DNA of 30,845 nt from Candidatus Nomurabacteria bacterium CG_4_9_14_0_2_um_filter_32_10 (GTDB lineage: Bacteria; Patescibacteriota; Minisyncoccia; Phycocordibacterales; UBA9973), in NCBI GenBank assembly GCA_002788475.1, contig PFRK01000037.1, positions 1 through 30,845 of the forward strand, in the 5' to 3' direction. Position numbers and translations under genes: made by a program. Shown piece by piece: positions 10,262 to 30,258 of this stretch (the stretch's first letter is position 1; each line of letters begins with the position of its first letter). The notes beneath the pieces were generated by a model that saw only the letters and a program-made list of their open reading frames with translations, was not told the origin of the DNA and did no database searches.

Positions 10262-11524
10262 TTAATCAAAGTAGTTTTTCAACCTTGCAATCTTTTCATG
10301 CTGGCGAAGTTTTTCATGAACTTTGGCTTCTATCTGACGGATACGTTCACGAGTCACTCCAAATTCTTCCCCTACTCTCTCTAAAGTATGCTGAATACCA
10401 TCAACCAATCCATAACGCATCTCAAGTATTTTACATTCTTTAGGATTAAGTTCATTTAAAACTTCACGAATTTGATCAGACAAAATTCTTCTAGAAGATT
10501 CTTGATCAGGACGTAAAATTTTGTCATCAGGAATGAAATTTTCAAGAGTTGATTTATCATCATCATCTCCTACTGGTTGTTCGAGAGAAATAGTTTCTTG
10601 ACTAATATTTTCAATCACATGAATTTTCTCAACAGGAATACCCATTTCTATGGCAATTTCTTCCGCCAATGGATCCCGACCCAAATCTTGACTAAGTTTT
10701 CTATATGTTTGTTTATATTTTGAAATAGTTTCAACCATATGTACTGGTATACGAATAGTTCTACTTTGATCGGCTAATGCGCGAGTAATAGATTGACGAA
10801 TCCACCAAGTAGCATAAGTAGAAAATTTATATCCTTTAGTCCAATCAAATTTTTCTACTGCTTTAAATAATCCCAAGTTCCCTTCTTGAATCAAATCCAA
10901 AAGACTAAGATTAGCACTCCTACCTACATATTTTTTAGCGATAGAAACAACCAAACGTAAATTAGCTCTAGCTAATAAATTTTTTGCTTCTACATCACCC
11001 AATTCTATTCGTTTTGCAAGATCTTTTTCATCAACTGCATGAATTAGTGCATATTGTCCTATTTCTTTTAAATACATTTGAATAGAATCATGTATAGTGG
11101 ATTTATTTAAATCTTTATCAGAAATATCATTATCTAAATTAAGTAAATTTCCACCTTCCAAAACATCTATCCCAGCAACTGCAAATTTCTCATAAAGTTC
11201 ATCTAAAAATAAAATATTATTTTCGATATTCGGAAAAGTTTTTAATATTTCATCATAAGTAATAAACCCTCTTTTACGTCCTTTCTCTATAAGTTTATTA
11301 GAAAGACGAGTAAATTCTTCCACTTTTTTCCCTCCTGTAACTAATTTTTTAACCTTTGTTTTTTTGACCTGCCTCCCCGCCAACCTCGCCGAGCCTAGGC
11401 GGGCTTTTTTTGATATTTTACGAGACTTCTTAGTTATTTTTTTAACTTTTTTAATTATTTTCTTAACCTTTTTCTTTTTTAAAATTTTCATTTTTTTCTT
11501 TAATTTTTTATTTTTTATTTTCAT
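10262..11524 (-). CDS. rpoD: RNA polymerase primary sigma factor
   Basis: Region 1.1-like [37 protein letters not shown] and [10 protein letters not shown]. Confidence 0.97.
11368..11403. repeat. 36-bp in-frame GC-rich insert in rpoD (peptide [13 protein letters not shown])
   Basis: Ends are CCCGCC...GGCAGG on the coding strand; removing it restores KK-V-KK. Confidence 0.8.
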
Positions 11525-11588
11525 CCCATTAAAAATTTTAATAATAATTTTTTTGTTTTCTGCCCGTTAGCTAAATTTTTAACGGGAT
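11523..11588. repeat. Three-half-site CCCGTT/AACGGG element at the dnaG-rpoD junction
   Basis: 11523-11538 and 11573-11588 form a 16-bp inverted repeat with 1 mismatch; local hairpin 11563-11569/11580-11586. Confidence 0.65.
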
Positions 11589-11596
11589 AAATATTT

Positions 11597-13429
11597 TTAT
11601 TTCTTAAAACGATTATTTTTAATATTTTCCTTTCTTTTATTTATTTCGTTTATTTTTTTCAAAATTTCTATTTCTTCTTTCTTTCCTTTTAAATTTTGTA
11701 AATCCATCATTTTTTCCGCTAATTCTTCATTTAAATATTCCTCTTCTACATTCAGTAACATTTCATTTATATCTTTATCTAAGTTTTCATTATTTGAATA
11801 AAATTCTTCTGCCTCATAAATTAAATCTTCCTTAATATTTTTATAAATTTCTTTTGCTTTATTTAATTTTTTAAAGATTAACTCTGGGTCTATAATTCTA
11901 TTTTTTATACCTGTCTGTCCGATAGGAAGGCTCTCTTGCCAAAAAGCTATCCCTAAAAGTCTACGTTCAATAGGATCTTTCCTCATTTTTTTCCCTATAT
12001 TCTCTTTAGCAATTTTTGTTTCTTCAGTTTCAGATTTTAACTCCGATTCAACTTTTTTCAGATCTTCTATCAAAGCATCTTCAGCTATACCTGATTTATT
12101 ACTAATAAGTTTAATAAAATATGATTTTTCAATTGAACTTTCAATTGAATCAACATATGGTAATATTCTTTCTTTTATTTCTCTTCCTACTAATCTCGCT
12201 GAATCTAAACGATTTTTATGTGTATCTTCTTTATTATTATTTAAAATTTTATCTAAAATAAATTCTATTATATGTTTTGAATTGCGAATCGCTGCATGCC
12301 ATGCATCCACTCCCTGCCTACCGGCAGGCAGGCATTTTCCAGAAATTAAATCTGCTGGATCAACACCTTCTGGTAAAGAGACAACCTTTACATCCATTCC
12401 AAAAGAAAGAGCGATTTTGCCAGCTCGTGTTGATGCATTAAATCCTGCTCGATCAGCATCAAAAGCAAGAACTATATTAGTGGATAAACGACGTAATAAT
12501 CCTAAATTTGAAATAACATTTTCTTTGGAAACCGTAGAGTCTGAAAGTGCTGTACCTGAAGTAGCAACAGTATTTCTGAAACCAGCCTGATGAGATAAAA
12601 CTAAATCCATCTGTCCTTCAACTAAAATAGAAAAATTATTCTTACGAATAGAATCCTTCGCTTTATCTAATCCATAAAGAATTGCAGACTTACTAAAAAT
12701 TGGAGTATCAGGACTATTTAAATACTTGGCTTGTTCATATTTGAAATCTTCTCCACCAGAGGCGGATCCGCCTTCGGCGGAAAAAATCCTACCAGAAAAA
12801 GCAGTAATGCGACCACTCGAATCTGAAATTGGAAACATAATTCTACCTCGAAACCTATCATACATTCCCTTCTCAGTTTTTTTAGTTAGACCAGCAAGTT
12901 CAATCTCTTTATCAGAAAAACCATTTTTTTGAAGATAATTATATAATTCACGCCAATCATTTTTTACAAATCCAATCCTAAAATCTTTAATTGTTTTATC
13001 TTCTAAACCCCTTCCTTTCAAATAAAGAAGTACCTCTTTACTTCCTACTAAATTCTTTTCAAAGAATTTAGTAGATTCTTCCATAACTCTATACAATCTT
13101 TCTTTTTCACCTTCTTTTTCTCTACTAAATCCTGCAAGCGAAATTCCTGCTCTTTCAGATAAAATTTTTAATGCACCTTTAAAATCAAGCCCCTCAAATT
13201 CTTCTATAAAAGTAAAAATATCACCTTTAGCCCCACAACCAAAACAATAATAACTAGCACGATCTGGAGACACAAAAAAAGACGGAGTTTTTTCGTTATG
13301 AAAAGGGCATTTGGCTTTGAAGTTTGTACCTACCCGATCTAATTTTATGTAGGAAGAGACTATTTCTTCAATTGAAAGCCTCTCCTTAATTTGTTGAACC
13401 GGAGAGTTCGTCCCGTTAGAGATTTTCAT
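11597..13429 (-). CDS. dnaG: DNA primase
   Basis: CPFHNEKTPSF...YCFGC zinc-binding domain, FRGRIMFPI, KYLNSP, VEGQMD and AFDADRAG Toprim motifs. Confidence 0.97.
   Translation of the reverse strand: MKISNGTNSPVQQIKERLSIEEIVSSYIKLDRVGTNFKAKCPFHNEKTPSFFVSPDRASYYCFGCGAKGDIFTFIEEFEGLDFKGALKILSERAGISLAGFSREKEGEKERLYRVMEESTKFFEKNLVGSKEVLLYLKGRGLEDKTIKDFRIGFVKNDWRELYNYLQKNGFSDKEIELAGLTKKTEKGMYDRFRGRIMFPISDSSGRITAFSGRIFSAEGGSASGGEDFKYEQAKYLNSPDTPIFSKSAILYGLDKAKDSIRKNNFSILVEGQMDLVLSHQAGFRNTVATSGTALSDSTVSKENVISNLGLLRRLSTNIVLAFDADRAGFNASTRAGKIALSFGMDVKVVSLPEGVDPADLISGKCLPAGRQGVDAWHAAIRNSKHIIEFILDKILNNNKEDTHKNRLDSARLVGREIKERILPYVDSIESSIEKSYFIKLISNKSGIAEDALIEDLKKVESELKSETEETKIAKENIGKKMRKDPIERRLLGIAFWQESLPIGQTGIKNRIIDPELIFKKLNKAKEIYKNIKEDLIYEAEEFYSNNENLDKDINEMLLNVEEEYLNEELAEKMMDLQNLKGKKEEIEILKKINEINKRKENIKNNRFKK
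11910..11930. repeat. 21-bp degenerate CCTGCC/GGCAGG-family insert in dnaG (LPIGQTG)
   Basis: cctgtctgtccgataggaagg; removing it gives the in-frame WQES-IKN. Confidence 0.55.
12182..12211. repeat. Eroded copy of the rpoD insert in dnaG (RLDSARLVGR)
   Basis: 19/30 nt identical to 11372-11401; all 11 differences are transitions. Confidence 0.6.
12313..12332. repeat. 20-bp palindrome within a 7-codon insert in dnaG (CLPAGRQ)
   Basis: cctgcct-a-ccgg-c-aggcagg, one mismatch. Confidence 0.85.
12752..12781. repeat. Family A 30-bp insert in dnaG (SAEGGSASGG)
   Basis: tccaccagaggcggatccgccttcggcgga. Confidence 0.95.
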
Positions 13430-13488
13430 AAATAATTATATTTGATAAAATTTATAAAGAGTCTAGAGTCCTGTTATCTCTAACGGGA
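13411..13488. repeat. Three-half-site CCCGTTAG/CTAACGGG element at the rpoC-dnaG junction
   Basis: 13411-13423 and 13476-13488 form a perfect 13-bp inverted repeat; local hairpin 13469-13476/13481-13488. It supplies the ISNG residues at the DnaG N-terminus. Confidence 0.7.
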
Positions 13489-13499
13489 TTCATAAAATT

Positions 13500-16400
13500 T
13501 TATTCCTCCTCTGGCAAAATTACTCTACTTTTAAATCCAGTTCCAGCTGGAATTAATCGGCCAATTATGACATTTTCTTTTAAACCTCTTAAAGAATCAA
13601 TTCCGCCTTTAATTGCATTTTCTATGAGAACACGATTAGTATTTTGGAATGATGCTGCAGAAAGCCAACTCTTGGTACGAAGAGATACTTCAGTAATACC
13701 AAGTACTATCGTTTCCGCTTTTGCCTCCTGTTGATTTAACTTAACAATTCTAATATTCTCTTCGATAAATGCTGTATTCTCAACAATATCACCAATAGAA
13801 AAATTAGTCTCTCCCGCATCTTTTATTTTTCTTCGTGAAAACATTTGACGAATAATTATTTCAGTATGTTTTCTTGAGATTGAAGCACTTTGAAGTTCAT
13901 AAACTTTATTTATTTCTCTAATTATATATTCTTCAACTAACTCCTTTCCTCCAAACTTATATATCTCAGCAATATCTGCTGATCCATCAGTCAAAAGTTC
14001 TCCTTTTCTTATTTTTTGACCTACTTTTACTATTGGTGTCCTACGGAACAAAACAGCATATTCGATTTCATTTGATTTTCCGTCAACTTTACTATCAGAT
14101 AGTACTTTAATTATTTTTTCTTTTCCATCTTTATCTTTTATCTCATATATCTCTCCATCAGTTTCTGAAACTACTGCTGGATTTTTAGGAATTCTTCTTT
14201 CAAAAATTTCTTCAATACGAGGCAACCCTGTGGTTATATCAGTACCTGCGACACCTCCAGCATGGAATGTACGCAATGTAAGCTGAGTACCTGGTTCTCC
14301 GATAGCTTGAGCTGCAATAATACCAACAGCTTCTCCTAAATCAACAAGATGATTTCGTCCTAAGTCTAACCCATAACACATTTGACAAAGACCATGAATA
14401 GTACGACATGTAAGTGGAGAACGAACAAAAACTTCTTCAAAACCAGCTCCTTCAATATTATAGGCCTCTTCTTTGGTAATTAAGAATCCTTTTTTATAAA
14501 TTACTTTTCCATCTTTATCTTTCAAATCACCTGCTAACACACGTCCACGAATATTTTTTGAGAGTGGAATTTCAATCCCAGAAATATTTTCTCTAGTTAC
14601 TATCTTCCCATTTTTTGTTCCACAATCTTCTTCAGTTATAACTACATCTTGAGCAACGTCAACTAAACGACGTGTAAGATATCCCGCTTTTGCAGTATTC
14701 AATGCTGTATCAGATGCTCCTTTACGAGCACCATGAGTAGTAACAAAATATTCAATCGGAGAAAGTCCTTCAAGATAAGAAGGTATAATAGGAAATTCTA
14801 AAACACTACCTTGGTTATTTTGGATGAGACCTTTCATTCCATTCATCTGAAGTAAACTTGTCATACTACCTCTAGCTCCAGATATAAATAAATCATAGGT
14901 AGAACCATTTTTATCCAAACTATTAGGTAAAACTTTTTCTAATTCTTTTTTAGCATATGTCCAAACTTCAATAATTTTTTGATACCTTTCCTCTTCAGAA
15001 AAAAGACCTTCATTCCATTCTGTTATTATTTTTTCTTCTAACTTTCTCCCTTCTGCTATAATTTTTTCTTTTTCAACAGGTACTTTTACATTATCTAATC
15101 CCCAAGTCGTACCAGAAAATGTCGAATATTTGAAACCAAAACTCTTTATTTTATCTAGAATAGGAGGAGTATCATCCACACCGTAATGCATAATAAGTTC
15201 ATCAACAAGAGAAGATATTCTTTTTTGAGTCATTTCATCACCTACATAGAAAAAATCATTTGGTAAAATACTATTAAAAAGAAGTTTACCAACTGAAGTA
15301 TCAAAAAATTCTCCACCAAATTTTTTATATTTGTGAGTATCTGTCGCCATAACTTTTATTTTAGCTCGGAGAGATACAGCTCCATATTCATAAGCAGTTA
15401 TAGCAGTATTAGGACTTGAAAAATATTTACCCTCACCAAATTCACCATCAACAGATTTCGTCATCCAATAAGATCCAAGAACAACATCTTTACTAGGATG
15501 AACTATCGGATCACCATTTTGTGGTTTAAGTAAATTTTTATTCGCAGCCATTAATTCTCTAGCTTCAGCTTGAGATTCTTTCAAAAGAGGAACATAAACC
15601 GCCATTTGGTCTCCATCAAAGTCAGCATTAAAAGCCTGACAAACGAGTGGATGTACTTGAATAGCATTTCCTTCAATAAGAATAGGATTAAAAGCTTGAA
15701 TACCTAATCTGTGAAGTGTCGGCGCACGATTTAAGAGAACATATTTTCCTTCAATCACTTCTTCCAACATTGCCCAAACTTCCGGTGTACGTTCTTCTAT
15801 AAGTTTATTTGCTCCACGGATATTAAATGCAAGTTCTGCTTGTAAAATCTTAGAAATTACAAATGGTCTAAAAAGTTCCAATGCCATATGTTTTGGCAAT
15901 CCACATTGATTGAGATTAAGTTCTGGACCAACAACGATAACACTACGACCTGAATAATCTACACGTTTACCAAGTAAATTTTGACGAAATAAACCTTGTT
16001 TAGATTTTAAATTATCAGATAGAGACTTTAAGGGACGTTTTTGAGATTGACTCATCGCAGCACTATCATTTTGTTTTGCAATTGAATTGTCTATAAGTGC
16101 ATCTACTGCTTCTTGAATAATCCTTTTTTCATTTCGCAAAATTACATCTGGTGCGTTTATTTCCTTTAATTTTTTCAAACGATTATTTCTATTTATTACT
16201 CGACGATAAAGATCATTTAAGTCTGATGTCGCATGACGTCCTCCATCAAGAGCAACCATAGGTCGCAATACTGGAGGGATGACTGGAATAACAGTTAGAA
16301 ACATCCACTCTGGTCGAATCCCAGCATAAGTCATAGCACGAATAAGTGAAAGCCTTTTTTGTAATTTTTCTTTTTCAACCATACTTGTTTTTTCAATCAT

Positions 16401-17108
16401 CTTTTCAGTAAGAATTTTTAATTTATTTAAATCAATATTCTTAAAGATAGAATAAATAGCTTCAGCGCCAATATTTGCTTCAAAACAAGTACCATATTTT
16501 AAGGAATAATGGTGAAAAGAAATTTCATTTAAAACTTTTCCTTCATAAATTTCCAAAATTTCTTTTTTAGTACTAGAAAATAAATTTTTTAATTTTTCAC
16601 GAGTGTCATCATCAGCTGAATTTTTTAATTTACTTTTATATTCTTTTTCTAAATTTTGAATAATTATTTCTTTTTCATCTTCGTGAACTTTAACTATTAT
16701 ATATCCAGCAAAATATATTACCTTTTCGAGATCAGATACAGAAATATTCAAAAGAATACTCATACGAGAAGGTACTCCTCTTAAAAACCAAATATGAGCA
16801 ACGGGTGTCGAAAGTTCAATGTGTCCCATTCTTTCTCTTCTCACAATAGAACGAGTAACTTCTACTCCACATTTTTCACAGATAATATCTTTATAACGAA
16901 TCCGACGATATTTTCCACAATAACATTCATAGTCTTTTTCTGGTCCAAATATCTTTTCATCAAAAAGACCACCACGTTCAGATCTACCTGTACGATAATT
17001 TATCGTTTCAGGTTTAGTGACTTCTCCATAAGACCAATCCTTTATTTGTTCAGGTGATGCCAGCTTGAGCGAAATGTAATCAAAATCTGTTTTATTTAAA
17101 GTTTTCAT
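13500..17108 (-). CDS. rpoC: RNA polymerase beta' subunit
   Basis: Zinc finger CYCGKY...CEKCG, NADFDGDQMA active-site motif, GEPGTQLTLRTFH. Confidence 0.99.
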   Translation of the reverse strand: MKTLNKTDFDYISLKLASPEQIKDWSYGEVTKPETINYRTGRSERGGLFDEKIFGPEKDYECYCGKYRRIRYKDIICEKCGVEVTRSIVRRERMGHIELSTPVAHIWFLRGVPSRMSILLNISVSDLEKVIYFAGYIIVKVHEDEKEIIIQNLEKEYKSKLKNSADDDTREKLKNLFSSTKKEILEIYEGKVLNEISFHHYSLKYGTCFEANIGAEAIYSIFKNIDLNKLKILTEKMIEKTSMVEKEKLQKRLSLIRAMTYAGIRPEWMFLTVIPVIPPVLRPMVALDGGRHATSDLNDLYRRVINRNNRLKKLKEINAPDVILRNEKRIIQEAVDALIDNSIAKQNDSAAMSQSQKRPLKSLSDNLKSKQGLFRQNLLGKRVDYSGRSVIVVGPELNLNQCGLPKHMALELFRPFVISKILQAELAFNIRGANKLIEERTPEVWAMLEEVIEGKYVLLNRAPTLHRLGIQAFNPILIEGNAIQVHPLVCQAFNADFDGDQMAVYVPLLKESQAEARELMAANKNLLKPQNGDPIVHPSKDVVLGSYWMTKSVDGEFGEGKYFSSPNTAITAYEYGAVSLRAKIKVMATDTHKYKKFGGEFFDTSVGKLLFNSILPNDFFYVGDEMTQKRISSLVDELIMHYGVDDTPPILDKIKSFGFKYSTFSGTTWGLDNVKVPVEKEKIIAEGRKLEEKIITEWNEGLFSEEERYQKIIEVWTYAKKELEKVLPNSLDKNGSTYDLFISGARGSMTSLLQMNGMKGLIQNNQGSVLEFPIIPSYLEGLSPIEYFVTTHGARKGASDTALNTAKAGYLTRRLVDVAQDVVITEEDCGTKNGKIVTRENISGIEIPLSKNIRGRVLAGDLKDKDGKVIYKKGFLITKEEAYNIEGAGFEEVFVRSPLTCRTIHGLCQMCYGLDLGRNHLVDLGEAVGIIAAQAIGEPGTQLTLRTFHAGGVAGTDITTGLPRIEEIFERRIPKNPAVVSETDGEIYEIKDKDGKEKIIKVLSDSKVDGKSNEIEYAVLFRRTPIVKVGQKIRKGELLTDGSADIAEIYKFGGKELVEEYIIREINKVYELQSASISRKHTEIIIRQMFSRRKIKDAGETNFSIGDIVENTAFIEENIRIVKLNQQEAKAETIVLGITEVSLRTKSWLSAASFQNTNRVLIENAIKGGIDSLRGLKENVIIGRLIPAGTGFKSRVILPEEE

Positions 17109-20100
17109 ATTTTTTCAAATTAATATCAAGCGCAAGTCCTCGTAAATAATTGAGTAATACATTGAACGATGCGGTAGAATTTGGTGGTTTAATAGGTTCA
17201 TTTTTGATAATGGAATCAAATGTCGCAGATCGACCAAGAATGTCATCAGATTTAATAGTAAGCATCTCTCGTAATGTATAAGCTGCACCATAACCTTCTA
17301 ATGCCCACACTTCCATTTCTCCAAATCTCTGTCCTCCACCTTGAGCTTTTCCTCCTAAAGGTTGTTGAGTGATAAGTGAATAAGGTCCAATAGAACGCAT
17401 ATGAATTTTATCTTCCACCATGTGATGAAGTTTCAACATATACATATAACCAACAGCAATATCTTGAGAAAAAGCTTCTCCTGTACGCCCATCAAAAAGT
17501 TTTAATCTTCCATTTTCTGGAAATCCAGCTTTTTTTAATTCTTCTTTTATTTCTTCATGTCCTGCTCCTAAAAATGGAGGAACAATAGCTTGATATCCTA
17601 ACGTGTTAGCCGCCATACCAAGATGCATTTCCAAAATTTGTCCCAAATTCATACGAGAAGGAACACCAAGTGGTGAAAGAATTATATCAACCGGTGTACC
17701 ATCTGTTGTATATGGCATATCTTCTTCTGGAAGAATTCTTGAAATAACTCCCTTATTGCCATGCCTACCAGAAAGTTTATCCCCAACTGAAATATTTCTA
17801 ATTTGAGCAACTTCGATAACAATTTTTTTAATAATACCCGCCTCAAGGGTATGACCTAAGTCACGAGAGAAAATTTTAATACCTATAATGCGACCACGTT
17901 TACCGTGCTCCATTCGTAATGATGTATCTTTAACATCACGTGCTTTTTCAGCAAAAATTGAACGTAATAATCTTTCTTCTGGAGTAAGTTCAGTTTCTCC
18001 TTTTGGTGTAATTTTACCAATTAAAATATCATTTTCTCTGACTTCAGCTCCAATACGAACAATACCATCTTCATCCAAATCTTTAAGTTTTAATTCTCCA
18101 ACATTTGGAATATCACGAGTAGTAATCTCAGGTCCAAGCTTAGTATCACGAACAATACAAACAAATTCTTCAAGATAAATAGATGTAAACTTACTCTTTT
18201 TTATAAGACGCTCAGAAATAATTATAGCGTCTTCATAATTTAACCCGAACCAAGATAAGAAAGCAATAAAGACATTCTGCCCAATTGAAATTTGCCCATC
18301 CACTGTGCTAGTGGTGTCAGCCAAGACATCTCCTTTCTTTATTTTTTGACCGACATCTACTGTAGGTCGTTGATGAAATGCAGAAAAATTATTGTTTCTT
18401 AAAAAATTAACAAGCGTGTAAGTTTTTTCTTTTTCTCCTTTAGTTTTAATTATTATTTTTCTAGCATCTAAATAAGATACAATTCCATCTTCTTCTGCAA
18501 TAACAATTCTTCCAGAATCTCGAGAAGCTAGTGTTTCTATACCCGTAGCTACAAGTGGAGCTTCAGGAAGAACGCAGGGTACAGCTTGTTTCTGCATGTT
18601 AGATCCCATAAGTGCTCTATTCGCATCATTATGTTCTAGAAAAGGAATCATAGAAGTTGCGATAGAAAAACCTTGGTTAGCTGCAACATCAATAAAATCA
18701 ACTTCTTCACGATGAATCATACCAGGATTAGTTTTTACTCTCGCAGCAACTTTTTCATCTGTTATCTTTCCATTTTCATCATAAGAAATTCCAGCGTGTG
18801 CAATATTATATTTTTCTTCCTCAAGTGCATTCAAATATTGAATTTCATTTGTGATTTTACCATTCTTAACTTTCATATATGGAGTTTCAATGATTCCAAA
18901 ATCATTTATTTTTGCATAAGTAGAAAGATGTAAAATAAGTCCAATGTTTGGACCCTCAGGTGTGTGAATAGGACAAACTCTTCCATAGTGGGAAGGATGC
19001 ACATCACGAACTTCAAGACCTGCACGCTCACGAGTAAGACCACCAGGTCCAAGAGCTGAAAGTAAACGTATATGCTCTATTTCAGCCAACACATTTTCTT
19101 GACTCATAAATTGTGAAAGCTGGTTTGTAGTAAAAAATTCTTTTATACGAGCTTGTAGTGGGCGCTGATTTATAATATGAATTGGCATCGCAGTATCAAC
19201 ATCAATAATAGACATTCTGTCTTGAATATTTCTCTTTATCTGCATCATACCAGTACGCACTTTTTGTTGAAGCATTTCTCCAACAAATCGAACACGTCTT
19301 TGACCTAGGTGATCTATATCATCAGACTTCGCACCTACTGTATTATTCAAAACAATAATATTTGTAATTACTGTCATTAAATCCTCTTTAGAAAGAGTCC
19401 TGCGAGCAAGTTCTTCATCATCTAATACTTTTTCAAAACGTTTATTAAATCTATATCGTCCAACAGGAGAAAGATCATATCTCTCAGGAGTAAACAAAGA
19501 ATTAATAAATTCTTTAGCATTATCAGCTGTCGCCATATCTCCATCTCTTAAACGTTTGTATATTTCAATATAAGCATCATTTAATGTCTTAGCTACGTCT
19601 TTTGCTAAACAAGCTTCAATCGCTTCTTTACATATATTTTCCAAGCCAGAGGCTTGTCCGCCTTTAGCGGAAAATACTTCTAACATCATTTCATTGGTGC
19701 TATAACCCATAACACGTAATAATGTAGTTGCAGGAAACTTTCTTTTTTTATCTATCCTTACATATATTGCACCATCAGATTCTGATTCTATCTCAATCCA
19801 AACTCCACGAGCTGGAATAATCTTTGCACCAAAATATTTTTTACCTTTACTTTCAGATTCCGTAAAAAAAACTCCGAAAGAACGTGCGAGTTGCGGCACA
19901 ATAATACGTTCTACTCCATTTATAATAAAAGTCCCGTGTGGAGTCATCAAAGGAATCTCAGACATAAAAATCTCTTGTTCTTTGACAGTACCTAAAATTT
20001 TATTCGTTAACTTTACACGAGTTTTAAGAAGTCCTTGATATGAGAGTTTATTTATTTTAGCTTCATTTTCTTCACAATTTGGTTCACTAATAGAAAAAGA

Positions 20101-20475: not shown

Positions 20476-20554
20476 AATTTCACCTCACCTCTACCCCCTC
20501 TCCTTTTTAAGGAGAGGGGAAATTTACCAACATGTAAATGGGGTGAGGTAAATT
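20476..20554. repeat. Branched palindromic element after the trmD stop
   Basis: Outer stem acctcacc/ggtgaggt, 11-bp stem cccctctcctt/aaggagagggg and 6-bp stem atttac/gtaaat. Confidence 0.75.
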
Positions 20555-21711: not shown

Positions 21712-21761
21712 TCCACCTGAGGCAGCCTGTCCGCCTTTGGCGGAGATCAGCCTCTGGCTGA
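21712..21761. repeat. Intergenic cluster of family A 15-bp hairpin units
   Basis: tccgcc-ttt-ggcgga (21730-21744), tcagcc-tct-ggctga (21747-21761) and a degenerate unit at 21712-21726. Confidence 0.85.
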
Positions 21762-21822
21762 AATGTTTGGCAGCGCTACGACCTTAAATGATTAACTGCA
21801 CTGCTGTAATAATTATACACAA

Positions 21823-21860
21823 CTCGCCAAAGGCGAGCAAGCTTGCCTGCCTCTGGCAGG
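21823..21860. repeat. Composite double hairpin directly after the rpsP stop
   Basis: ctcgcc-aaa-ggcgag, caagcttg, cctgcc-tct-ggcagg. Confidence 0.85.
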
Positions 21861-22169: not shown

Positions 22170-22175
22170 CTTAAG

Positions 22176-22184: not shown

Positions 22185-22208
22185 TAATTCTCCAAAAAGG
22201 CAAATTAA

Positions 22209-23069: not shown

Positions 23070-23109
23070 AAATTAATTATGAACTTTTTATATAAAAATG
23101 TAAATAATG

Positions 23110-23118
23110 TGTTATATT
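23110..23118 (+). promoter_or_regulatory. Extended -10 (TGTTATATT) 7 nt before the rnr ATG
   Basis: TGn + TAnnnT. Confidence 0.45.
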
Positions 23119-23125
23119 TAGCTTA

Positions 23126-25093
23126 ATGAAGAACAAAAAACAGAAAATATATAAAGCACTGCAAGGTACCATATCTATTACCTCAAAGGGCACTGGATAT
23201 GTCAAAGTTCCTGATTATGAACAAGATCCAGAGATTGATTTTAAAGATCTAAATACAGCACTTCATGGAGATATTGTTGAAATTATATTAAATAAAAAAG
23301 GATATAGACGCCTTACAGGAAGAGTATCAAGAATAATTTCACGTGCAAAGATTGGTTTTGTGGGAGTGCTGGAGGAGGTCAGTCCTCCTTCAGGAGGACT
23401 GACCTCCTCCAAATTCTTTCTAAAACCTGACGATACAAAGATGTATACAGATATTCTGATACCAGAAAAATTTTTAAAGGATGCAAAAACCGGCCTGCCT
23501 GCGCAGGCAGGACAAAAAGTTTATATAGAAATAACTTCTTGGACAGATGCATCTAAAGCACCAGAAGGTAAAGTAATAAAAATTCTAGGTCAACCCGGAG
23601 AAAATAGTGCAGAAATGCATGCTATTGCAATAGAAAAAGGTTTTGACAGTGATTTGCCACAAAAGGTAGAAGAAGAAGCAAAAAAAATTAAAACTCTAGG
23701 AATTAAAGAAGGAGACTTCGTTGAACGACGTGATTTTAGAAAAACTCTTACCTTTACTATCGACCCTGATGATGCAAAAGATTTTGATGATGCTATTTCT
23801 TTTAAAGAAATAGATAGCAATACATATGAAATAGGCATACATATAGCCGACGTAACACATTATGTAAAAATTGGGAGTGAATTAGATAAAGAAGCAAGAA
23901 ATAGAGGTACTTCCGTATATTTAGTCGATAGAACAATACCAATGCTTCCAGAGGCACTTTCAAATGACTTATGTTCTTTAATACCAAACAAAGATAGGCT
24001 CACCATGAGTGCTGTTTTTATTTTAGATAAAAATGCAAAAGTTAAAAAGGAATGGTTTGGAAAAACTATCATACATTCTCAAAAAAGATTCACTTATGAA
24101 GAGGCAGAAGAAACTATCAAGAAAGATTCAAAGCCATTACATAAAGAACTTCTTATTTTAAATAATCTAGCAAAAAAATTAACAAAAGAAAGATTTGCAA
24201 ATGGAGCAATATCTCTCGAGCAGGAAGAAGTAAAATTTATTTTAGATAAAAATGGAGTACCAATAAAAGTTATAAAAAAAGAACGAGGTAATTCTAACAA
24301 ATTAATAGAAGAATTTATGCTTTTAGCAAACAAAAAAGTAGCGGAAACAATTTCAAAAGGTACAAAGAAAGAAGGTGGTGTATTTGTTTACCGTATTCAC
24401 GACAATCCTAGTAAAGAAAAAATGACTGACTTAGCTTTCTTTTTAAAAAGTTTAGGATATAAAATATCTTTAGTAGATGGAGTTATACCTACATATGAAA
24501 TAAATAGTCTTTTAAAGAGTCTAGAAGGAAAAAATGAAGAAGATACAGTAAATCGAGCCGTCATACGTTCTATGGCAAAAGCAATTTATTCTACCAAAAA
24601 TATCGGACATTACGGTTTAGCATTTGAATATTATGCTCATTTTACTTCCCCTATTAGAAGATACCCAGACATAGTGGTACATAGACTTTTAAACGATTAT
24701 CTACAAGGAATAAAAGTAGGAAAAGAAAAATTAAATATATACGAAGAAATTTCAATAAAAGCATCAGAAAGAGAGAAATTTGCTTCCGATGCTGAACAAG
24801 CTTCTATAAAATATAAACAAGTTGAATATATGTCTTCTCGTATTACAGAAGTTTTCGAAGGAATCATAAGTGGAATAACAGAATGGGGTATCTATGTAGA
24901 AGAGAAAGAAACAAAATGTGAAGGACTAGTGCGAGTGCGAGACATGGAAGATGGCTTCTATGTTTTTAATGAAAAGAAATTAGAATTAGTCGGACAAAAG
25001 AATAAAAAAAGATATCGTTTAGGTGATCAAGTCAAAATAAAAATTAAAAATATTGATCTAAAAAGAAAAACGATAGATTACACATTAGTATGA
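23126..25093 (+). CDS. rnr: Ribonuclease R (RNB family)
   Basis: TIDPDDAKDFDDA catalytic motif, HFTSPIRRYPD, C-terminal S1 domain. Confidence 0.95.
   Translation: MKNKKQKIYKALQGTISITSKGTGYVKVPDYEQDPEIDFKDLNTALHGDIVEIILNKKGYRRLTGRVSRIISRAKIGFVGVLEEVSPPSGGLTSSKFFLKPDDTKMYTDILIPEKFLKDAKTGLPAQAGQKVYIEITSWTDASKAPEGKVIKILGQPGENSAEMHAIAIEKGFDSDLPQKVEEEAKKIKTLGIKEGDFVERRDFRKTLTFTIDPDDAKDFDDAISFKEIDSNTYEIGIHIADVTHYVKIGSELDKEARNRGTSVYLVDRTIPMLPEALSNDLCSLIPNKDRLTMSAVFILDKNAKVKKEWFGKTIIHSQKRFTYEEAEETIKKDSKPLHKELLILNNLAKKLTKERFANGAISLEQEEVKFILDKNGVPIKVIKKERGNSNKLIEEFMLLANKKVAETISKGTKKEGGVFVYRIHDNPSKEKMTDLAFFLKSLGYKISLVDGVIPTYEINSLLKSLEGKNEEDTVNRAVIRSMAKAIYSTKNIGHYGLAFEYYAHFTSPIRRYPDIVVHRLLNDYLQGIKVGKEKLNIYEEISIKASEREKFASDAEQASIKYKQVEYMSSRITEVFEGIISGITEWGIYVEEKETKCEGLVRVRDMEDGFYVFNEKKLELVGQKNKKRYRLGDQVKIKIKNIDLKRKTIDYTLV
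23370..23411. repeat. 42-bp palindrome in frame in rnr (EEVSPPSGGLTSS)
   Basis: Perfect 20-bp arms tggaggaggtcagtcctcct / aggaggactgacctcctcca around TC. Confidence 0.95.
23494..23511. repeat. 18-bp perfect palindrome in frame in rnr (GLPAQAG)
   Basis: cctgcctgcgcaggcagg; removing it restores K-T-G-Q-K. Confidence 0.95.
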
Positions 25094-26976
25094 AATATAA
25101 TATCAATCAAAAAATAAAATTAGCATTTTGGATAATATCTGCTGTTATTATCGGTATATTTTTTTCATCTCTCATTTTTAAAAATATAAAATATGAAAAA
25201 ATAATAAATCCAAGTGAAAATATAGCGATAGCCATAGAATCTTTAACCTCACAAGAAACGACACCAAAATATTTTTATTTTATAAAAGATCAAAATAAAA
25301 AACCAAAAGTTTCAGCTTCTGCTTATTTAGTTGGCGATTTAGACACAGGGGAAATTATTCTGACAAAAAATCAAGAAAAAGAATTTCCACTAGCTTCAGT
25401 TTCTAAACTTATGACTGCTTATGTAGCAACAGAATTAATGGATGAAAATAATATAGCTCAAGTCTCAAAAAAGGCATTGTCTACTTATGGAGAAAATGGT
25501 AATTTCAAAATCGGAGAAAAAATAAAAATCTCAGATCTTATATATCCCCTACTTTTAGAATCAAGTAATGATGCTGCAGAAATAATAGCCGAGTATTTCG
25601 ATAGAGATACTTTTATAAAAAAAATGAATCAGGCGGTAGAAAAAATAGAATTATCTAAAACTTTCTTCGATGATCCAAGTGGGCTTTCAGAAAAAAATAA
25701 ATCAACTGTTTTCGATATGTTTAAGCTAGCGGGATATTTAAATCAAAAAAATCCAGATTTATTCAAAACAACTACGAATCGTAGCTATTCTAATAAAAAA
25801 CACAACTGGTTTAGTAATAATCAATTTTTGCGGGAAGAAGGATATTTAGGTGGTAAAAGTGGATATACGGATCCTGCTCTACAAACAGTAATTTCTCTCT
25901 TTTCGGTACCTCTTTCAGAAACTGGAACACGTAATATAGCTATTACACTCTTGCAAAGTAAAGATCGTTACAAGGATGTAGAAAGTATTTTAAAATATTT
26001 AAATAAAAATATATATTATGGTGGAGAAGCTGATGCTAATACTCTATGGGTAAAAGAAAAAGCTGGTATACCTGAAATTAAAGATCCTGACTTCGTAACT
26101 CTCCTTTTTGGTGGAGACATAATGCTTGATCGTGGAGTCAAAAATTCTGTGAATAAAAACTTTAATAAAGATTATCTAGCACTTTTTGAAAAGTTAAACA
26201 TCTTAAAAAAATCTGATATTACTTTTGCTAATTTAGAAGGCCCAGCATCTGATCTAGGTAAAGATATGCGTAATTTATATTCATTTAGAATGGACTCTTC
26301 CATTATACCGGCTCTCAAAGGAGCAGGATTTTCTGTTGTTTCAATCGCAAATAATCACGTCGGAGACTGGGGGCGTGAAGCTTATGCTGATACATTAATG
26401 AGATTAAAGGAAAATGAAATTTCATATACAGGTGGAGGTATAAATGCAAATGAAGTAGAAACACCAGTAATTATAGAAAAATATGGGATCAAAATAGGAT
26501 ATTTAGGATTCTCTGATGTCGGTCCTGTATGGATGAAAGCAACCGAAGATCAAGCTGGCATACTACTAGCAAGTAACCCACGTTTTGATGAAATAATACA
26601 AAATGCTTCAAAACAAGTTGACCATCTAATAATTTCATTCCATTTCGGAGATGAATATAAAACTAAACATAACACTAGACAAGAATATCTAGCACATAAA
26701 GCGATAGATGCTGGAGCAAAAATAGTAATTGGGCATCATCCTCATGTGATAGAAGATATAGAAGTTTATAAAAATGGTTTTATAGCTTATTCATTAGGCA
26801 ACTTTATTTTTGATCAAGGTTTTTCAACAAATACAATGGAAGGGATGCTTCTTGAAATGAAATTAAATAAACTTGGAGAAATAACTATAAAGAAAAATAT
26901 AGTCAAACTAAATAAATTTTTTCAACCAGATAAAGTAATTATCGGTAAAGAAGAAAAAATAATTTTTAAGAAATAA
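25090..26976 (+). CDS. Fusion of S11 D-Ala-D-Ala carboxypeptidase and CapA (PGA_cap) domain
   Basis: SxxK (SVSK), SxN (SSN) and KSG motifs, then GGDIMLDR, NLEG, ANNH, GHHPH and YSLGNFIF. ATGA overlap with the rnr stop. Confidence 0.9.
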   Translation: MKYNINQKIKLAFWIISAVIIGIFFSSLIFKNIKYEKIINPSENIAIAIESLTSQETTPKYFYFIKDQNKKPKVSASAYLVGDLDTGEIILTKNQEKEFPLASVSKLMTAYVATELMDENNIAQVSKKALSTYGENGNFKIGEKIKISDLIYPLLLESSNDAAEIIAEYFDRDTFIKKMNQAVEKIELSKTFFDDPSGLSEKNKSTVFDMFKLAGYLNQKNPDLFKTTTNRSYSNKKHNWFSNNQFLREEGYLGGKSGYTDPALQTVISLFSVPLSETGTRNIAITLLQSKDRYKDVESILKYLNKNIYYGGEADANTLWVKEKAGIPEIKDPDFVTLLFGGDIMLDRGVKNSVNKNFNKDYLALFEKLNILKKSDITFANLEGPASDLGKDMRNLYSFRMDSSIIPALKGAGFSVVSIANNHVGDWGREAYADTLMRLKENEISYTGGGINANEVETPVIIEKYGIKIGYLGFSDVGPVWMKATEDQAGILLASNPRFDEIIQNASKQVDHLIISFHFGDEYKTKHNTRQEYLAHKAIDAGAKIVIGHHPHVIEDIEVYKNGFIAYSLGNFIFDQGFSTNTMEGMLLEMKLNKLGEITIKKNIVKLNKFFQPDKVIIGKEEKIIFKK

Positions 26977-27035
26977 AAGTAAAACAAAAAATCAAACAAC
27001 GTTATGTTATGTGTTTTTCTTTTATTATAAATTTA

Positions 27036-27377
27036 TTATCCTTTCCACGCAGACATTATAAAAAGCAAAATAAGTATCATAGGTACAAAAACAAATAATA
27101 TAATTAATAAAAAAGAAATACCAACTACTTTGGAAGTCTTTTTTAGGGCACTATTTTCTTGTCCAGGTAATATTATGCCTTTTTTTTCCAATCTGATGTT
27201 TCGTATTCCACGAATAAATAAAAGTATTCCATATAACAAAAGTAATATAAATGGTAAAATAACCAAAAGTTCCCAAAAGTTTGTCGGTATTTTTGTATTT
27301 ATTAGTGAAAAAACTCCAAAAAAAGTAAGAATCATTCCAATTAATATAAAAACCTCATTTTTATAATCTTTTTTCAT
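27036..27377 (-). CDS. Small multi-TM hypothetical protein
   Basis: 113 aa with three hydrophobic segments. Confidence 0.6.
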   Translation of the reverse strand: MKKDYKNEVFILIGMILTFFGVFSLINTKIPTNFWELLVILPFILLLLYGILLFIRGIRNIRLEKKGIILPGQENSALKKTSKVVGISFLLIILFVFVPMILILLFIMSAWKG

Positions 27378-27457
27378 AATAATATTATTAAATTAATAAT
27401 TACCCTTTACTTTTTTATCATATCATATATATTCAAAGTTAATCATTAAAAATTACA

Positions 27458-27479
27458 CATTTAAGCCATGGCTGATATG
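27458..27479. repeat. CCATGG-centred palindrome downstream of the cas2-like gene
   Basis: Perfect core agccatggct (27464-27473) with imperfect cat...atg extension. Confidence 0.5.
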
Positions 27480-27490
27480 AGGATAAATGG

Positions 27491-27871
27491 CTATAATTTC
27501 TTTATATAAGATTTTGCTAGTTTAAATGTCTTGCAGTTATCTCCTATTTTTATTTCTTTTAAGTAATCTAAAAAGTCTTTTGGTAATGGAGAAGGCCCTA
27601 CCCAAACACTTTTTTGAATCATTATATAACCAAACTTTATTAGTTGTCTTCGAAACCAATCTCTTTCTTTCTTTTTATCAGATGGAATGTCATACATCAC
27701 AATCAAATTTTTAGAAGAATCTTTATTAAAAGGAGAAATAAAGGTAACATTATAGAAAGTCCTCTTTCTATTTTCTTTTTTTGCACGACTTTTTCTCCCT
27801 TCTGAAAAAATCGGAATACCAAAAGAATTTACTTCTATCCCTTTATAAAATAATCTCTTTTTTGAATTCAT
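27491..27871 (-). CDS. Solo Cas2-like / PaaX-central-domain protein
   Basis: LIVMYDIP...ERDWFRRQL..FGYIMIQKSVW matches the Cas2/VapD/PaaX ferredoxin-fold pattern (YDI and QxSV). No cas1 and no array in the window. Confidence 0.8.
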   Translation of the reverse strand: MNSKKRLFYKGIEVNSFGIPIFSEGRKSRAKKENRKRTFYNVTFISPFNKDSSKNLIVMYDIPSDKKKERDWFRRQLIKFGYIMIQKSVWVGPSPLPKDFLDYLKEIKIGDNCKTFKLAKSYIKKL

Positions 27872-27878
27872 ATAAAAA

Positions 27879-27887
27879 ACTATATCA
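27879..27887 (-). promoter_or_regulatory. Extended -10 (TGATATAGT) 7 nt before the cas2-like ATG
   Basis: TGn + TAnnnT. Confidence 0.5.
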
Positions 27888-27889
27888 CA

Positions 27890-27925
27890 AAATCCCCATA
27901 TACACCATGGCGTATATGGGGATTT
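27890..27925. repeat. 36-bp CCATGG-centred palindrome upstream of the cas2-like gene
   Basis: aaatccccatatacaccatggcgtatatggggattt, 17 of 18 pairs matched. Confidence 0.9.
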
Positions 27926-27951
27926 ATTACAATTCTTTTACAACTTCCTAT

Positions 27952-30258
27952 TTATTTTGCAATAGCTACTGCATCGTCTAATTTGACAGAAAGAAGCTTG
28001 GAAGATCCATCATTCCCTATAGTTACCCCATATAACGTACCAGCACGAGACATTGTCTCACGATTATGAGTGACAACAATAAGCTGAGAGGCCCCTGAGA
28101 GTTTTTCTAACATATCTCCATATTTGCGAGAATTTGATTCATCCAAAGCAGCATCCGTTTCATCAAGAACTAAGAATGGTGGTGGATTTACTTGTGACAT
28201 AGCAAAAAGAAGAGCAATAGATGTGAGTGATCTTTCCCCTCCTGAGAGTGCATTTAATTCTTTTACTTTTTTATGTGGGAGAGAAACATTTATCTCAATA
28301 CCCTGTTCAAAAACAATTTCATCTTCATCTCCTTCCTCTCCTTCTTCTTCCTTTCCTCTCTTCTTTTTATTTTCAGTTGTAACAGAGAGAAAGCCTGTTC
28401 CACCATCAAACATTAATGAGAAAAATTTATCAAATTCTATATTTATTTTTTTAATACCTTCTTTAAACTCTACATCAATTTTTTCTTTCAAATCCACCAT
28501 AAGTGTACGAAGTGACTCTATACTTACGACTAAATCTTCCATTTCTTTTGCCAAAAAATTATCTCTCTCTGAAACTTCTTCAAACTCTTTTATTATCTCA
28601 GACCCACCACCCAAACCAACATCTTCCAATTTTATCTTAATGCGTTCGATTTTTCGTCTTAACTCCTCCTGTTCTATTCTGTTTATTATGACCTCTCCGC
28701 CAAAGGCGGATCCGCCTTCAGTGGAAAAATTTTTGTAAGTTAATATCTCACTGCCAATAAGTATTTCACCTTCTTTTATCTCATTTTTAAAGGCTTCTGA
28801 TTCTTTTGATAAAGACTCCTCTTTTATCGATATGAGCCCCAAAGAAGAAGATAATTCTTGCTGTTTAACCCTAAAATTAAACTTTTCTTTTTCTTTTAAA
28901 TGTAAAGCCTCATTTTCTTGGTTAATCTCTTTTTTTAATATTTCTATTTTTTCAAAAATTTTCTTTTCTTCATCTGTAATATTTTGCATTTCAAGCAAAA
29001 TTTCTTGCTGATTCTTTTTTAACTCAGAATTCTCTGAAAATATAGTTTCTGAATGGTCTGGCTGGGATAGGGACCCAGAGAACCGAGAACCTGAAGAAAT
29101 TATATTTCCAGAGAATTCTTTTAAAATATTCTGAATTCTCAAAAGAATAATCTTGATTTCTGCTGCACTATCTTCTACAATAGCTATTTCTATTTCAGAA
29201 TTAATTTCATCAAATATAGCCTTTATTTCTTCAGGGTTTTTTATCGAAACTTCTGGAATTTTTTCACTTCTCCTCTCTTCCATTTCTATCATTCCTTCGA
29301 TTCTTCCCAATTTACGTTCTATTTCATTCTTAACATTACGAATTTCACTTATTTTTTTCTCAAAGATTTTTAATTCTTTTTCCCCGCCTACATCGCTATG
29401 CATAGCATTGTAGGCAGGTTTTTCATTTTCTTCTATATCTGAAATGTTTTTATTTATATCTCCTAATTCTATCTCTATTTTGCTCTTTTCACTAAGTAAA
29501 CTGGACTGCTCTTTTTCTAAATAAATACTTTCTTTCTTTAAATATTCTTTATATAAAGATAAAAGTGACACCTGCATTTCTTTTGCTTTCTCAAATTTAT
29601 CTACTTGTTTTTTTAAAAAATTCAAATGTGGAGCATTTTCTCGACGTAAAAGAGAGACCTCCTTCATATTATTAGTAGTCCTTTCTAGTTTACGTTGTGC
29701 TTCTTTTATTTTATATTGGTAAATTTTAAGTCCAAGAGCATCTTCTACCATCTCTCTCCTATCTCTAGGAGATGCATTCAATATCCTATCTGCTTCACCT
29801 TGGGAAATGATGTGATGCCCAGAAGAACCAATATTAACTGATGATAAAAGATTATTAATATCTTTTAATCTCACCTCCGAGCCATTCAAAATGTATTTAT
29901 TTAACCCATCAGAAAAAACTTCACGAGAAATTGAGATGACATCGTAATTTAAATTAAAATTTTCACCTGTTTCATTAGAAAGTTTAAAAACTTTATCAGA
30001 GTTATCAAAATATATCGTAACAACTGCACGTGAACTTTTTGGCAAATTTTTAGATCCTTTAAAAATTAAATCAGATCCTGATGTTCCACGCATTGACTTC
30101 ATTGATTGTTCTCCTAAAACAAAGCGAAGTGCTTCTACAACATTTGACTTACCAGATCCATTTGGACCTACTATAGAAATAATAGGATTCTGGAATTCCA
30201 AAATTATTTTTTTTGAAAAAGATTTAAAACCATTAATTTCAAGATTCTTTAATCGCAT
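27952..30258 (-). CDS. smc: Short SMC-family ATPase (768 aa)
   Basis: GPNGSGKSN Walker A, LSGGE signature, FLVLDETDAALD Walker B/D-loop and VVTHN; adjacent to rnc. Confidence 0.9.
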   Translation of the reverse strand: MRLKNLEINGFKSFSKKIILEFQNPIISIVGPNGSGKSNVVEALRFVLGEQSMKSMRGTSGSDLIFKGSKNLPKSSRAVVTIYFDNSDKVFKLSNETGENFNLNYDVISISREVFSDGLNKYILNGSEVRLKDINNLLSSVNIGSSGHHIISQGEADRILNASPRDRREMVEDALGLKIYQYKIKEAQRKLERTTNNMKEVSLLRRENAPHLNFLKKQVDKFEKAKEMQVSLLSLYKEYLKKESIYLEKEQSSLLSEKSKIEIELGDINKNISDIEENEKPAYNAMHSDVGGEKELKIFEKKISEIRNVKNEIERKLGRIEGMIEMEERRSEKIPEVSIKNPEEIKAIFDEINSEIEIAIVEDSAAEIKIILLRIQNILKEFSGNIISSGSRFSGSLSQPDHSETIFSENSELKKNQQEILLEMQNITDEEKKIFEKIEILKKEINQENEALHLKEKEKFNFRVKQQELSSSLGLISIKEESLSKESEAFKNEIKEGEILIGSEILTYKNFSTEGGSAFGGEVIINRIEQEELRRKIERIKIKLEDVGLGGGSEIIKEFEEVSERDNFLAKEMEDLVVSIESLRTLMVDLKEKIDVEFKEGIKKINIEFDKFFSLMFDGGTGFLSVTTENKKKRGKEEEGEEGDEDEIVFEQGIEINVSLPHKKVKELNALSGGERSLTSIALLFAMSQVNPPPFLVLDETDAALDESNSRKYGDMLEKLSGASQLIVVTHNRETMSRAGTLYGVTIGNDGSSKLLSVKLDDAVAIAK
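28696..28725. repeat. Family A 30-bp insert in smc (STEGGSAFGG)
   Basis: tccgccaaaggcggatccgccttcagtgga. Confidence 0.9.
29026..29119. repeat. Inverted-repeat-bounded segment inside smc
   Basis: 29026-29050 pairs with 29095-29119 (23/25); GC-rich core with ctggg/cccag hairpin and gagaacc x2. Confidence 0.55.
29383..29418. repeat. 36-bp palindromic insert in smc (PAYNAMHSDVGG)
   Basis: 15 of 18 pairs matched, centred on ATGCAT; ends are CCTGCC/GGCGGG on the coding strand; exactly 12 codons. Confidence 0.9.

Follow-up and report, generated by a model that had tools for sequence, protein, structure and literature searches.

Rickettsia palindromic elements (RPEs) are selfish palindromic repeats that occur in frame in conserved genes, and also in intergenic regions (PMC10969869). 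Elements of a similar kind are found in the 30,845-nt stretch of DNA analysed here (the window), which is contig PFRK01000037.1 of Candidatus Nomurabacteria bacterium CG_4_9_14_0_2_um_filter_32_10, from the Candidate Phyla Radiation (CPR). The genome (G000, in which the window is contig C35) is a metagenome bin of 606 kb in 58 contigs, with 31.7% GC, and the sequencing runs that hold the window are groundwater and aquifer metagenomes. It contains GC-rich hairpin inserts of 15-54 bp, many of them within essential genes; the window itself carries rpoD, dnaG, rpoC, rpoB, trmD, khpA, rpsP, rnr, and smc. Like RPEs, these inserts are in-frame, non-disrupting palindromes in conserved open reading frames (ORFs) of a small AT-rich genome, which also lie between genes, and no transposase is known for RPEs, just as none was found for the elements here. 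Length and description nevertheless set the two apart, as RPEs measure roughly 100-150 bp and form Rickettsia-specific families, whereas the present elements are 15-54 bp long, GC-rich, modular, and found in another phylum.

The GC clusters and hairpins of mitochondrial genomes offer another close parallel, being GC-rich palindromes in AT-rich genomes, with constrained stems, variable loops, unit shuffling, and a sporadic distribution among relatives. The double-hairpin elements of sponges, for example, share with the elements here the tandem hairpins and the compensatory substitutions (PMC2800124). The yeast GC42 cluster has an AG target-site duplication, and its mechanism of movement is unresolved (PMC4478555); in contrast, no duplication is seen here at 11 empty sites. 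Moreover, the mitochondrial elements belong to organelle genomes, while those described here lie mostly inside protein genes and are filtered by the reading frame. No published description of these CPR elements was found in the literature searched on CPR and on the tyrosine transposases associated with repetitive extragenic palindromic (REP) sequences, known as RAYTs. What the present analysis adds is the sharing of 9-nt arms by elements whose interiors are exchangeable, the exactness of the borders, the targeting of TTT by module pairs, an 18-mer found across the class, and the lack of a RAYT partner.

The inserts are best understood, with a probability of about 60%, as a superfamily of miniature, non-autonomous mobile DNA hairpins that have colonised AT-rich genomes within this lineage of the CPR. 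Their functional part would be the GC-rich terminal stem, either as modules with a 6-bp stem and a 3-nt loop arranged in pairs, or as 9-nt arms. This reading relies on the comparison of filled and empty sites in relatives, whose genomes measure 0.4-0.9 Mb, and in particular in two that were fetched whole: G006, the closest relative (~80% protein identity, 795 kb), which is nearly element-free, and G007 (about 65-70% identity, 646 kb), which is rich in the same element families. At least 13 G000 elements correspond to codon-exact gaps in G006 as well as in G007, and at 11 sites (five 36/39-bp elements, three 18-mers, and three module pairs) the empty site in G006 is exact at the nucleotide level. 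A 39-bp element, for instance, lies in AAA TCA AAT / 39 bp / GGA AAA, with AAA GCA AAT / GGG AAA as its empty counterpart, and a module pair lies in GAA TTT / 30 bp / AAA AAT, versus GAA TTT / AAA AAC when empty. All 11 inserts start and finish on the shared ends; a first-pass annotation of the window had placed the borders on the terminal hexamers, and none of these sites has its boundaries elsewhere. No target duplication was seen at the 11 nucleotide-level empty sites, and no flanking bases were lost either: the elements insert between two adjacent bases. Conversely, G000 and G006 have empty sites for the majority of G007 copies.

The inserts named in the first-pass annotation, in rnr, dnaG, smc, and rpoD, together with those of family A and the intergenic hybrid at 21846, were all located where it had put them, and the window holds the following elements.

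1275..1304, minus strand: tandem module pair, TCCGCC-AGA-GGCGGA followed by TCCGCC-TCT-GGCGGA, in a DsbD_2/HMA membrane protein gene.
11368..11403, minus strand: insert in the N-terminal, Lys-rich part of rpoD, composed of a palindrome and a remnant.
12313..12332, minus strand: B2 element in dnaG, CCTG followed by CCTGCC-GGTA-GGCAGG, 20 bp, reading (C)LPAGRQ.
12752..12781, minus strand: tandem module pair in dnaG, with a degenerate second module (GGC to GGT); includes the module at 12767-12781.
19642..19671, minus strand: degenerate tandem module pair in rpoB, reading SAKGGQASGL after TTT.
21730..21860, no strand assigned: intergenic mosaic of four modules between khpA and rpsP, similar to bacterial interspersed mosaic elements (BIMEs).
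21730-21744: family A module TCCGCC-TTT-GGCGGA of this mosaic.
21747-21761: module TCAGCC-TCT-GGCTGA of this mosaic.
21823-21837: module CTCGCC-AAA-GGCGAG of this mosaic.
21846-21860: module CCTGCC-TCT-GGCAGG of this mosaic, adjoining the rpsP stop codon.
23494..23511, plus strand: B element in rnr, a perfect 18-bp palindrome, CCTGCCTGCGCAGGCAGG, in phase 2, reading LPAQAG.
28696..28725, minus strand: tandem module pair in smc, with a degenerate first module (TCCACT); includes the module at 28696-28710.
29383..29418, minus strand: 36-bp armed element in smc, CCTGCCTAC, 18 nt, then GTAGGCGGG, in phase 0, reading PAYNAMHSDVGG.

Several of these inserts are specific to G000 and have their borders on the hexamer ends: the 18-mer of rnr, the 36-mer of smc, and the A pairs of dnaG, smc, and the DsbD-like gene. 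The rnr 18-mer is missing in 11 relatives, and its removal leaves ACC GGA CAA, versus GCT GGG CAA in G006. The pair in the DsbD-like gene is in phase 0 and yields the peptide SARGGSASGG after a TTT codon, at a site that is empty in G006 (GAG TTT / GGA GAT); it folds as a perfect 30-nt palindrome (-17.5 kcal/mol). The dnaG pair reads SAEGGSASGG straight after a conserved ATT TTT, which in five relatives is TTT followed by a short loop of the KDDGKS type, and the smc pair reads STEGGSAFGG after a conserved AAT TTT, where relatives have a loop of 4-8 residues. The position of the rpoB pair corresponds to a 3-residue loop in G006 and G007. As for the smc 36-mer, a pairwise alignment with G006 gives an exact 12-codon gap between ENEK and EKEL, with borders that are less sure because a three-way alignment (G006, G007) puts the gap elsewhere. 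Its stem differs from the family consensus by a compensatory G-C to A-T change; the folding energy is -10.8 kcal/mol for the coding strand and -9.3 for its complement.

Clean excision in phase thus holds for the rnr insert, the smc 36-mer, and the A pairs, but not for the dnaG 20-bp copy, which cannot be an exact in-frame unit because 20 is not a multiple of 3. The loop that contains this copy shows a net gain of 7 residues relative to five relatives and holds another insert in G006, and the further copies of the 20-mer are intergenic. The 36-bp rpoD insert, CCCGCC...GGCAGG, is indeed present; it is, however, not the single unit originally described, but a composite of a 28-bp palindrome, CCCGCC...GGCGGG (11376-11403), and an 8-nt CCTGCCTC remnant (11368-11375), whose borders are ambiguous and cannot be fixed because of the low-complexity, Lys-rich surroundings. 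It adds 6-14 residues relative to six relatives and folds weakly (z = -1.3). A dnaG segment, 12180-12209, reads RLDSARLVGR from AT-rich codons and is similar to the rpoD insert peptide. A degenerate copy cited earlier under the junction 'WQES-IKN' was not located.

The simplest unit is a 15-bp module of the form YCNGCC-NNN-GGCNGR, with a 6-bp stem and a 3-nt loop. Counted across the genome, the pattern proposed in the first-pass annotation gives 92 matches, and the 15-bp modules are far above shuffled sequences: G000 holds 42 perfect and 24 near-perfect copies, versus 0 perfect and about 1-2 near-perfect in shuffles, and reversed-pattern controls gave 0 in the 31 and in the 401 genomes scanned. 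The invariant core GCCNNNGGC occurs 76 times in the genome, versus 27 times for the reversed GGCNNNGCC. With only this core fixed, the outer positions are complementary at offsets 1-3 in 57, 59, and 53 of the 76 copies (shuffle means 26, 44, and 33), with three pair types at offset 1 (C-G, A-T, T-A), and complementarity ceases exactly at offset 4, which gives a stem of 6 bp and a unit bounded by the hexamer ends. Positions 3/13 and 1/15 covary. Among the stem variants (TCCGCC, TCAGCC, CCAGCC, TCTGCC, CCTGCC), TCAGCC and CCAGCC are common; the terminal hexamer initially put forward is therefore right as a shared end but too narrow in asking for a pyrimidine at its third position, where A is allowed (YCNGCC). 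Stems are kept by compensatory changes, and loops vary.

Most modules stand in tandem pairs; such pairs, of exactly 30 bp, make up 24 arrays with various module combinations, and the modules combine freely, as A-A, A-P, Q-A, and P-Q. About 60% of module arrays lie within ORFs, and ~36% fall in the 10% of the genome that is outside them.

The other class, the armed elements, has 9-nt arms, CCYGCCYGC...GCRGGCRGG, which are common to elements of 18, 27, 33, 36, and 39 bp; this confirms the earlier observation that inserts with different interiors have the same ends. There are 29 armed elements in G000 and 21 in G007, with interiors of 0, 2, 9, 15, 18, 21, or 24 nt, which correspond to the following forms.

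Interior of 0 nt: 18-bp palindrome, as in rnr.
Interior of 2 nt: 20-mer, as in dnaG.
Interiors of 9 and 15 nt: elements of 27 and 33 bp.
Interior of 18 nt: 36-mer, as in smc.
Interiors of 21 and 24 nt: elements of 39 and 42 bp.

A genome search found no occurrence of the 36- and 39-mer interiors outside arms. As they are confined to arms, these are whole elements with common ends, and the idea that the 36/39-bp elements are an independent hairpin nested in the 18-mer was rejected, the interiors never being found alone. Two composites, at C27:3614-3667 and C28:3923-3973 of G000, consist of a 36-bp armed element within the 3' arm or loop of a second armed element, with the peptide PARNVS-PARNDSRSDSGRQ-SDVGG; this arrangement resembles a nested insertion. 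Other in-frame palindromes need not share these ends, as illustrated by a 42-bp palindrome in rnr. This near-perfect palindrome (23370-23411, TGGAGGAGGTCAGTCCTCC..., 20-bp stem) has ends unrelated to YCNGCC and is one of about 5 genomic copies of the CTGGAGGAGG...CCTCCTCCAG family. The loop in question is ~8 residues longer in G000 (EVSPPSGGLTSS) and in G006 is occupied by another insert.

The distribution of copies within genes is strongly shaped by the reading frame. In G000, 14 of the 17 in-gene module pairs are in phase 0, reading (F)SAxGG(S/P)AxG(G/W), with the same pattern in G007, and modules ending in GGCTGA, which would give a stop in phase 0, are only intergenic or in other phases. 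The 18-mer reads LPAQAG in every long ORF in which it was seen (six genomes). In G000, every in-gene copy of the 36/39-mers has the same phase and orientation and reads PARNA...AGG; in G007, one of the 15 in-gene copies listed is reversed. Length follows the same rule: in-gene armed elements are a multiple of 3 in 19/20 cases in G000 and 16/17 in G007, versus 2/9 and 1/4 outside genes. Since a DNA enzyme would be blind to codon phase, many insertions probably happen, and only those giving a tolerable peptide persist. Most insertions would then be lost, the survivors being either intergenic or placed in tolerant protein loops in one frame; asymmetric survivors would also be restricted to one orientation, the one that gives a benign peptide rich in Ser, Ala, Gly, and Pro. 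The frame filtering suggests that the inserts are translated, in which case the junction peptides to expect are LPAQAG, PARNASHSDAGG, and SAxGGSAxGG.

Module pairs also have a target. For 10 of the 14 phase-0 pairs the 5' codon is TTT, although TTT accounts for 4.4% of codons (P about 1e-11), and this TTT is already there at empty sites; the 3' flank is usually AAA, GAA, or GAG, and thus starts with a purine. Armed elements show no clear target or fixed flank. The IS200/IS605 family inserts without duplication next to a fixed short sequence, a tetra- or pentanucleotide, and the palindrome-associated transposable elements (PATEs) derived from it are similar to the present elements in their hairpin ends, in the absence of duplication, and, to a degree and for module pairs only, in the insertion 3' of TTT. 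The two-hairpin unit even resembles a left and a right end with nothing between them. Nevertheless, 30 bp leaves no room for cleavage guide sequences of the IS608 type, the armed elements lack a fixed target, and no autonomous parent was found. The attC sites of integrons, which are recognised as folded single strands by both structure and sequence, likewise have conserved inverted ends and highly variable interiors, but they recombine only at attI or attC within integrons, via IntI, whereas the elements here are dispersed and inside genes. A miniature inverted-repeat element of a DDE transposon was rejected: inverted ends are present, but the duplication is absent at 11/11 nucleotide-level empty sites.

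Most sites are lineage-specific in both directions and lie in unrelated genes, and identical 36- and 39-mers are present at non-orthologous sites of G000 and G007. The exact 18-mer was found in 41 of the 401 genomes and 35 of the 282 genera of the class, in at most 10 copies (0 for the control pattern). In the relative G018, it lies at C2:22177-22194 (locus L023), inside the span that matches rnr and ~270 codons downstream of the G000 site, which suggests that the gene was hit independently. The families are distributed separately: G011, G013, and G015 match family C and not A, while G025 matches family A only, with ~4 of its 12 pattern matches being module pairs and the rest hairpins with longer stems. 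A few copies are older. A 27-bp element on contig C54 is common to G000 and G006, with one loop base different, and is cleanly absent in G007; an A-P module pair in a SpoU-like gene is present in G000 and G007, not in G006, with identical stems and different loops. Finally, one codon position of nusA carries the 18-mer (GLPAQAG) in G000 (C39:3557-3574) and G007 (C3:27392-27409), and a module-type hairpin, TTA CCC GCC TCT GGC GGC (GLPASGG), in G006 (C20 near 63250); this reflects either the replacement of one element type by another at an occupied site, or drift from palindrome to palindrome.

Taken together, the shared arms, the borders on the ends, the compensatory stems, and the class-wide 18-mer point to ends that are needed for propagation. 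Within the mobile-hairpin reading, the shared ends would persist since the moving machinery needs a closed GC-rich stem of these sequences, and movement would take place as a folded single strand, in the 'peel and paste' manner of HUH/Y1 enzymes that leaves no duplication, with a putative enzyme acting in trans. The first-pass annotation had suggested one enzyme for all these elements, a proposal that finds no support here: the TTT target exists only for pairs, the families spread independently, there is no RAYT partner, and the 42-bp rnr palindrome has unrelated ends. As target and distribution differ between pairs and armed elements, the data suggest at least two partly independent systems. 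A more specific version, in which the ends CCYGCCYGC and YCNGCC-N3-GGCNGR would be recognised by a putative enzyme, widespread in the class and possibly encoded by a core gene, that inserts folded single-stranded DNA hairpins between adjacent bases without duplication, is offered as a speculative proposal that we consider unlikely. If true, it would represent a new kind of minimal transposition and, through the constant supply of in-frame loops, a major source of lineage-specific insertions in the housekeeping proteins of CPR bacteria.

Single-strand transposition of hairpins probably does operate in these cells, given their Y1 genes with dispersed hairpins of their own. G000 has six divergent transposase-like genes of the Y1 type (PF01797), whose best NCBIfam match is REP_Tyr_transpos (28-67 bits), at loci L027-L032.

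C5:1539-2222, C6:2634-3308, C39:657-1349, C48:8601-9356, C36:1-708, C13:13571-14278: the six Y1 genes.
TGTCAAAG-6 nt-CTTTGACA, AACAGGC-CTT-GCCTGTT, TGTGCAAAGT-CGA-ACTTTGCACA: flanking hairpins of Y1 genes, first set.
CACAGGG-TTC-CCCTGTG, TCGCAAGGAC-G-GTCCTTGCGA, ACGGAAGC-CTT-GCTTCCGT: flanking hairpins of Y1 genes, second set.

Each gene is bracketed by its own hairpin family (with CAAAG, CAAGG, CAGGG, or GGAAGC cores), and several of these families are dispersed in the genome. The inserts could thus be the REPs of a resident RAYT-like Y1 transposase that recognises a common stem and acts by single-strand cut and paste, an explanation that appears doubtful. The likeness to REPs, to their doublets forming hairpins (REPINs), and to RAYTs (PMC3733652) is real: short GC-rich imperfect palindromes, doublets, BIME-like clusters such as the intergenic mosaic at 21730-21860, several hairpin-flanked Y1 genes, and a short palindrome (20-40 bp in REPs) in many copies, here 66 modules plus 29 armed elements over 606 kb. 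The duplication-free insertion next to a fixed TTT, as in IS200/IS605, and the hairpins flanking the Y1 genes, similar in design (a stem and a short loop, several of 3 nt) and dispersed, go in the same direction. REPs, however, carry at one of their ends a conserved tetranucleotide, GTAG or CGTC (PMC3733652), of which there is no trace here, the ends being YCNGCC or CCYGCCYGC with TTT (pairs) or variable flanks; they are also extragenic, whereas most armed elements here, like the majority of the arrays, are inside ORFs. In addition, all six G000 proteins score below the curated REP_Tyr_transpos cut-off of 80 bits, no RAYT-like gene among 20 in three genomes and at 24 loci elsewhere is flanked by the hairpins under study, and the numbers of genes and elements do not co-vary across 31 genomes.

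Some of these results weigh equally against the mobile-hairpin reading with an enzyme in trans, along with others. No YCNGCC-type hairpin was found at the ends of RAYT-like genes, in 20 genes (6 in G000, 10 in G007, and 4 in G006) and 24 loci in relatives, each gene having a different hairpin family; at one G015 locus, a B2-like copy lies nearby, beside the gene's own flanking hairpins. The number of RAYT-like genes bears no relation to that of elements in these 31 genomes: 8-11 such genes go with 0-1 elements in G003, G008, and G014, and in G013 four family-C matches go with no RAYT-like match. Of 23 ORFs that G000 and G007 share and G006 lacks, 20 were scanned; they are an amidase, a glutamate dehydrogenase, pilin-like proteins, a deaminase, and unknowns, without a nuclease or recombinase among them. 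A search for a kb-sized autonomous parent bounded by the arms found only degenerate solo arms. The orientation of asymmetric elements follows the gene strand, minority-strand genes included, so that peptide selection, mRNA selection, and transcription-coupled insertion are inseparable; replication strand as the cause of this orientation is weakened by the same copies in minority-strand genes. Lastly, the three old orthologous copies (SpoU-like, NusA, and the 27-bp element of C54) keep perfect or near-perfect stems, which is unexpected for the neutral decay of a dead parasite and hints at constraint in place or at re-insertion.

A mechanism without any dedicated enzyme would account for the failure to find a transposase candidate. 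The elements would then be related by common descent and kept by the thermodynamics of GC-rich stems, spreading with the host's replication or repair, for instance by template switching or by ligation of self-folded hairpin strands at a nick or an Okazaki junction, with recombination shuffling the units, as has been proposed for mitochondrial GC clusters. The free heterodimers of modules and the element within an element on C27 and C28 are in line with this, as are the yeast mitochondrial GC clusters, with the same stem constraint, loop variability, and merger or shuffling of units (PMC4478555), and the sponge mitochondrial hairpins, which are also tandem doubles with compensatory changes (PMC2800124). 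Still, this explanation seems rather improbable, as the exact 18-mer is kept across 35 genera, the 9-nt arms common to unrelated interiors are more sequence-specific than thermodynamics needs, the sharp TTT target suggests a protein that reads sequence, and GC-rich hairpin families with other ends coexist unblended. It is considerably less probable that the hairpins are signals selected by the host (uptake or recombination signals, pause or terminator hairpins, or protein linkers), with the in-frame peptides as a by-product. The uptake sequences of Pasteurellaceae and Neisseria likewise sit in tolerant protein frames, the orthologous copies retain perfect stems over long divergence, the 18-mer is class-wide, and some intergenic copies lie immediately 3' of stop codons; nevertheless, the distribution is very patchy (G006 has nearly none, and the 18-mer is missing in 360/401 genomes), the sites are mostly lineage-specific and in unrelated genes, the copies appear as whole insertions and not by point mutation, and they hold no consistent position relative to gene ends. 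An assembly or sequencing artefact (adaptor or chimera) is scarcely credible. It would fit a metagenome bin of 58 contigs in which several elements are <=200 bp from contig ends, but the same elements are found in many independently assembled genomes, the patterns of frame, phase, and length modulo 3 show selection in vivo, and 11 runs from different studies hold at least half of the window's sampled words.

The genomes of CPR bacteria are tiny and densely packed with genes, and odd lineage-specific insertions are a known trait of the essential proteins they encode; a concrete generator of such insertions is visible here. The shared 9-nt arms and the unchanged 18-mer constitute a defined substrate for finding the machinery that moves palindromes, and the same machinery question stands for the Rickettsia RPEs and the mitochondrial GC clusters. 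There are also consequences for annotation, since these inserts probably disrupt assemblies and give rise to spurious 'novel loops' in phylogenetic marker proteins. Many G000 elements lie within ~200 bp or so of contig ends (C25:57-91, C37:169-198, C18:40-77, C4:38, C3:42-171, C24:462); such repeats probably break up the assembly, and the adjoining genes could be absent from the bin.

The window holds further hairpins of other types. Between rpoB and trmD, at 20495-20519, lies a CCCCTCTCC-loop-GGAGAGGGG hairpin with at least 5 copies in the genome. A solo gene at 27491-27871 encodes a Cas2/PaaX_M-like protein (Pfam 6e-14); it was considered as a partner of the elements and set aside, as nothing connects it to them. 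Upstream of this gene, at 27890-27925, is a 36-bp palindrome centred on CCATGG, and a related 20-bp palindrome, ATCTACGCCATGGCGTAGAT, is present on contigs C2 and C22.

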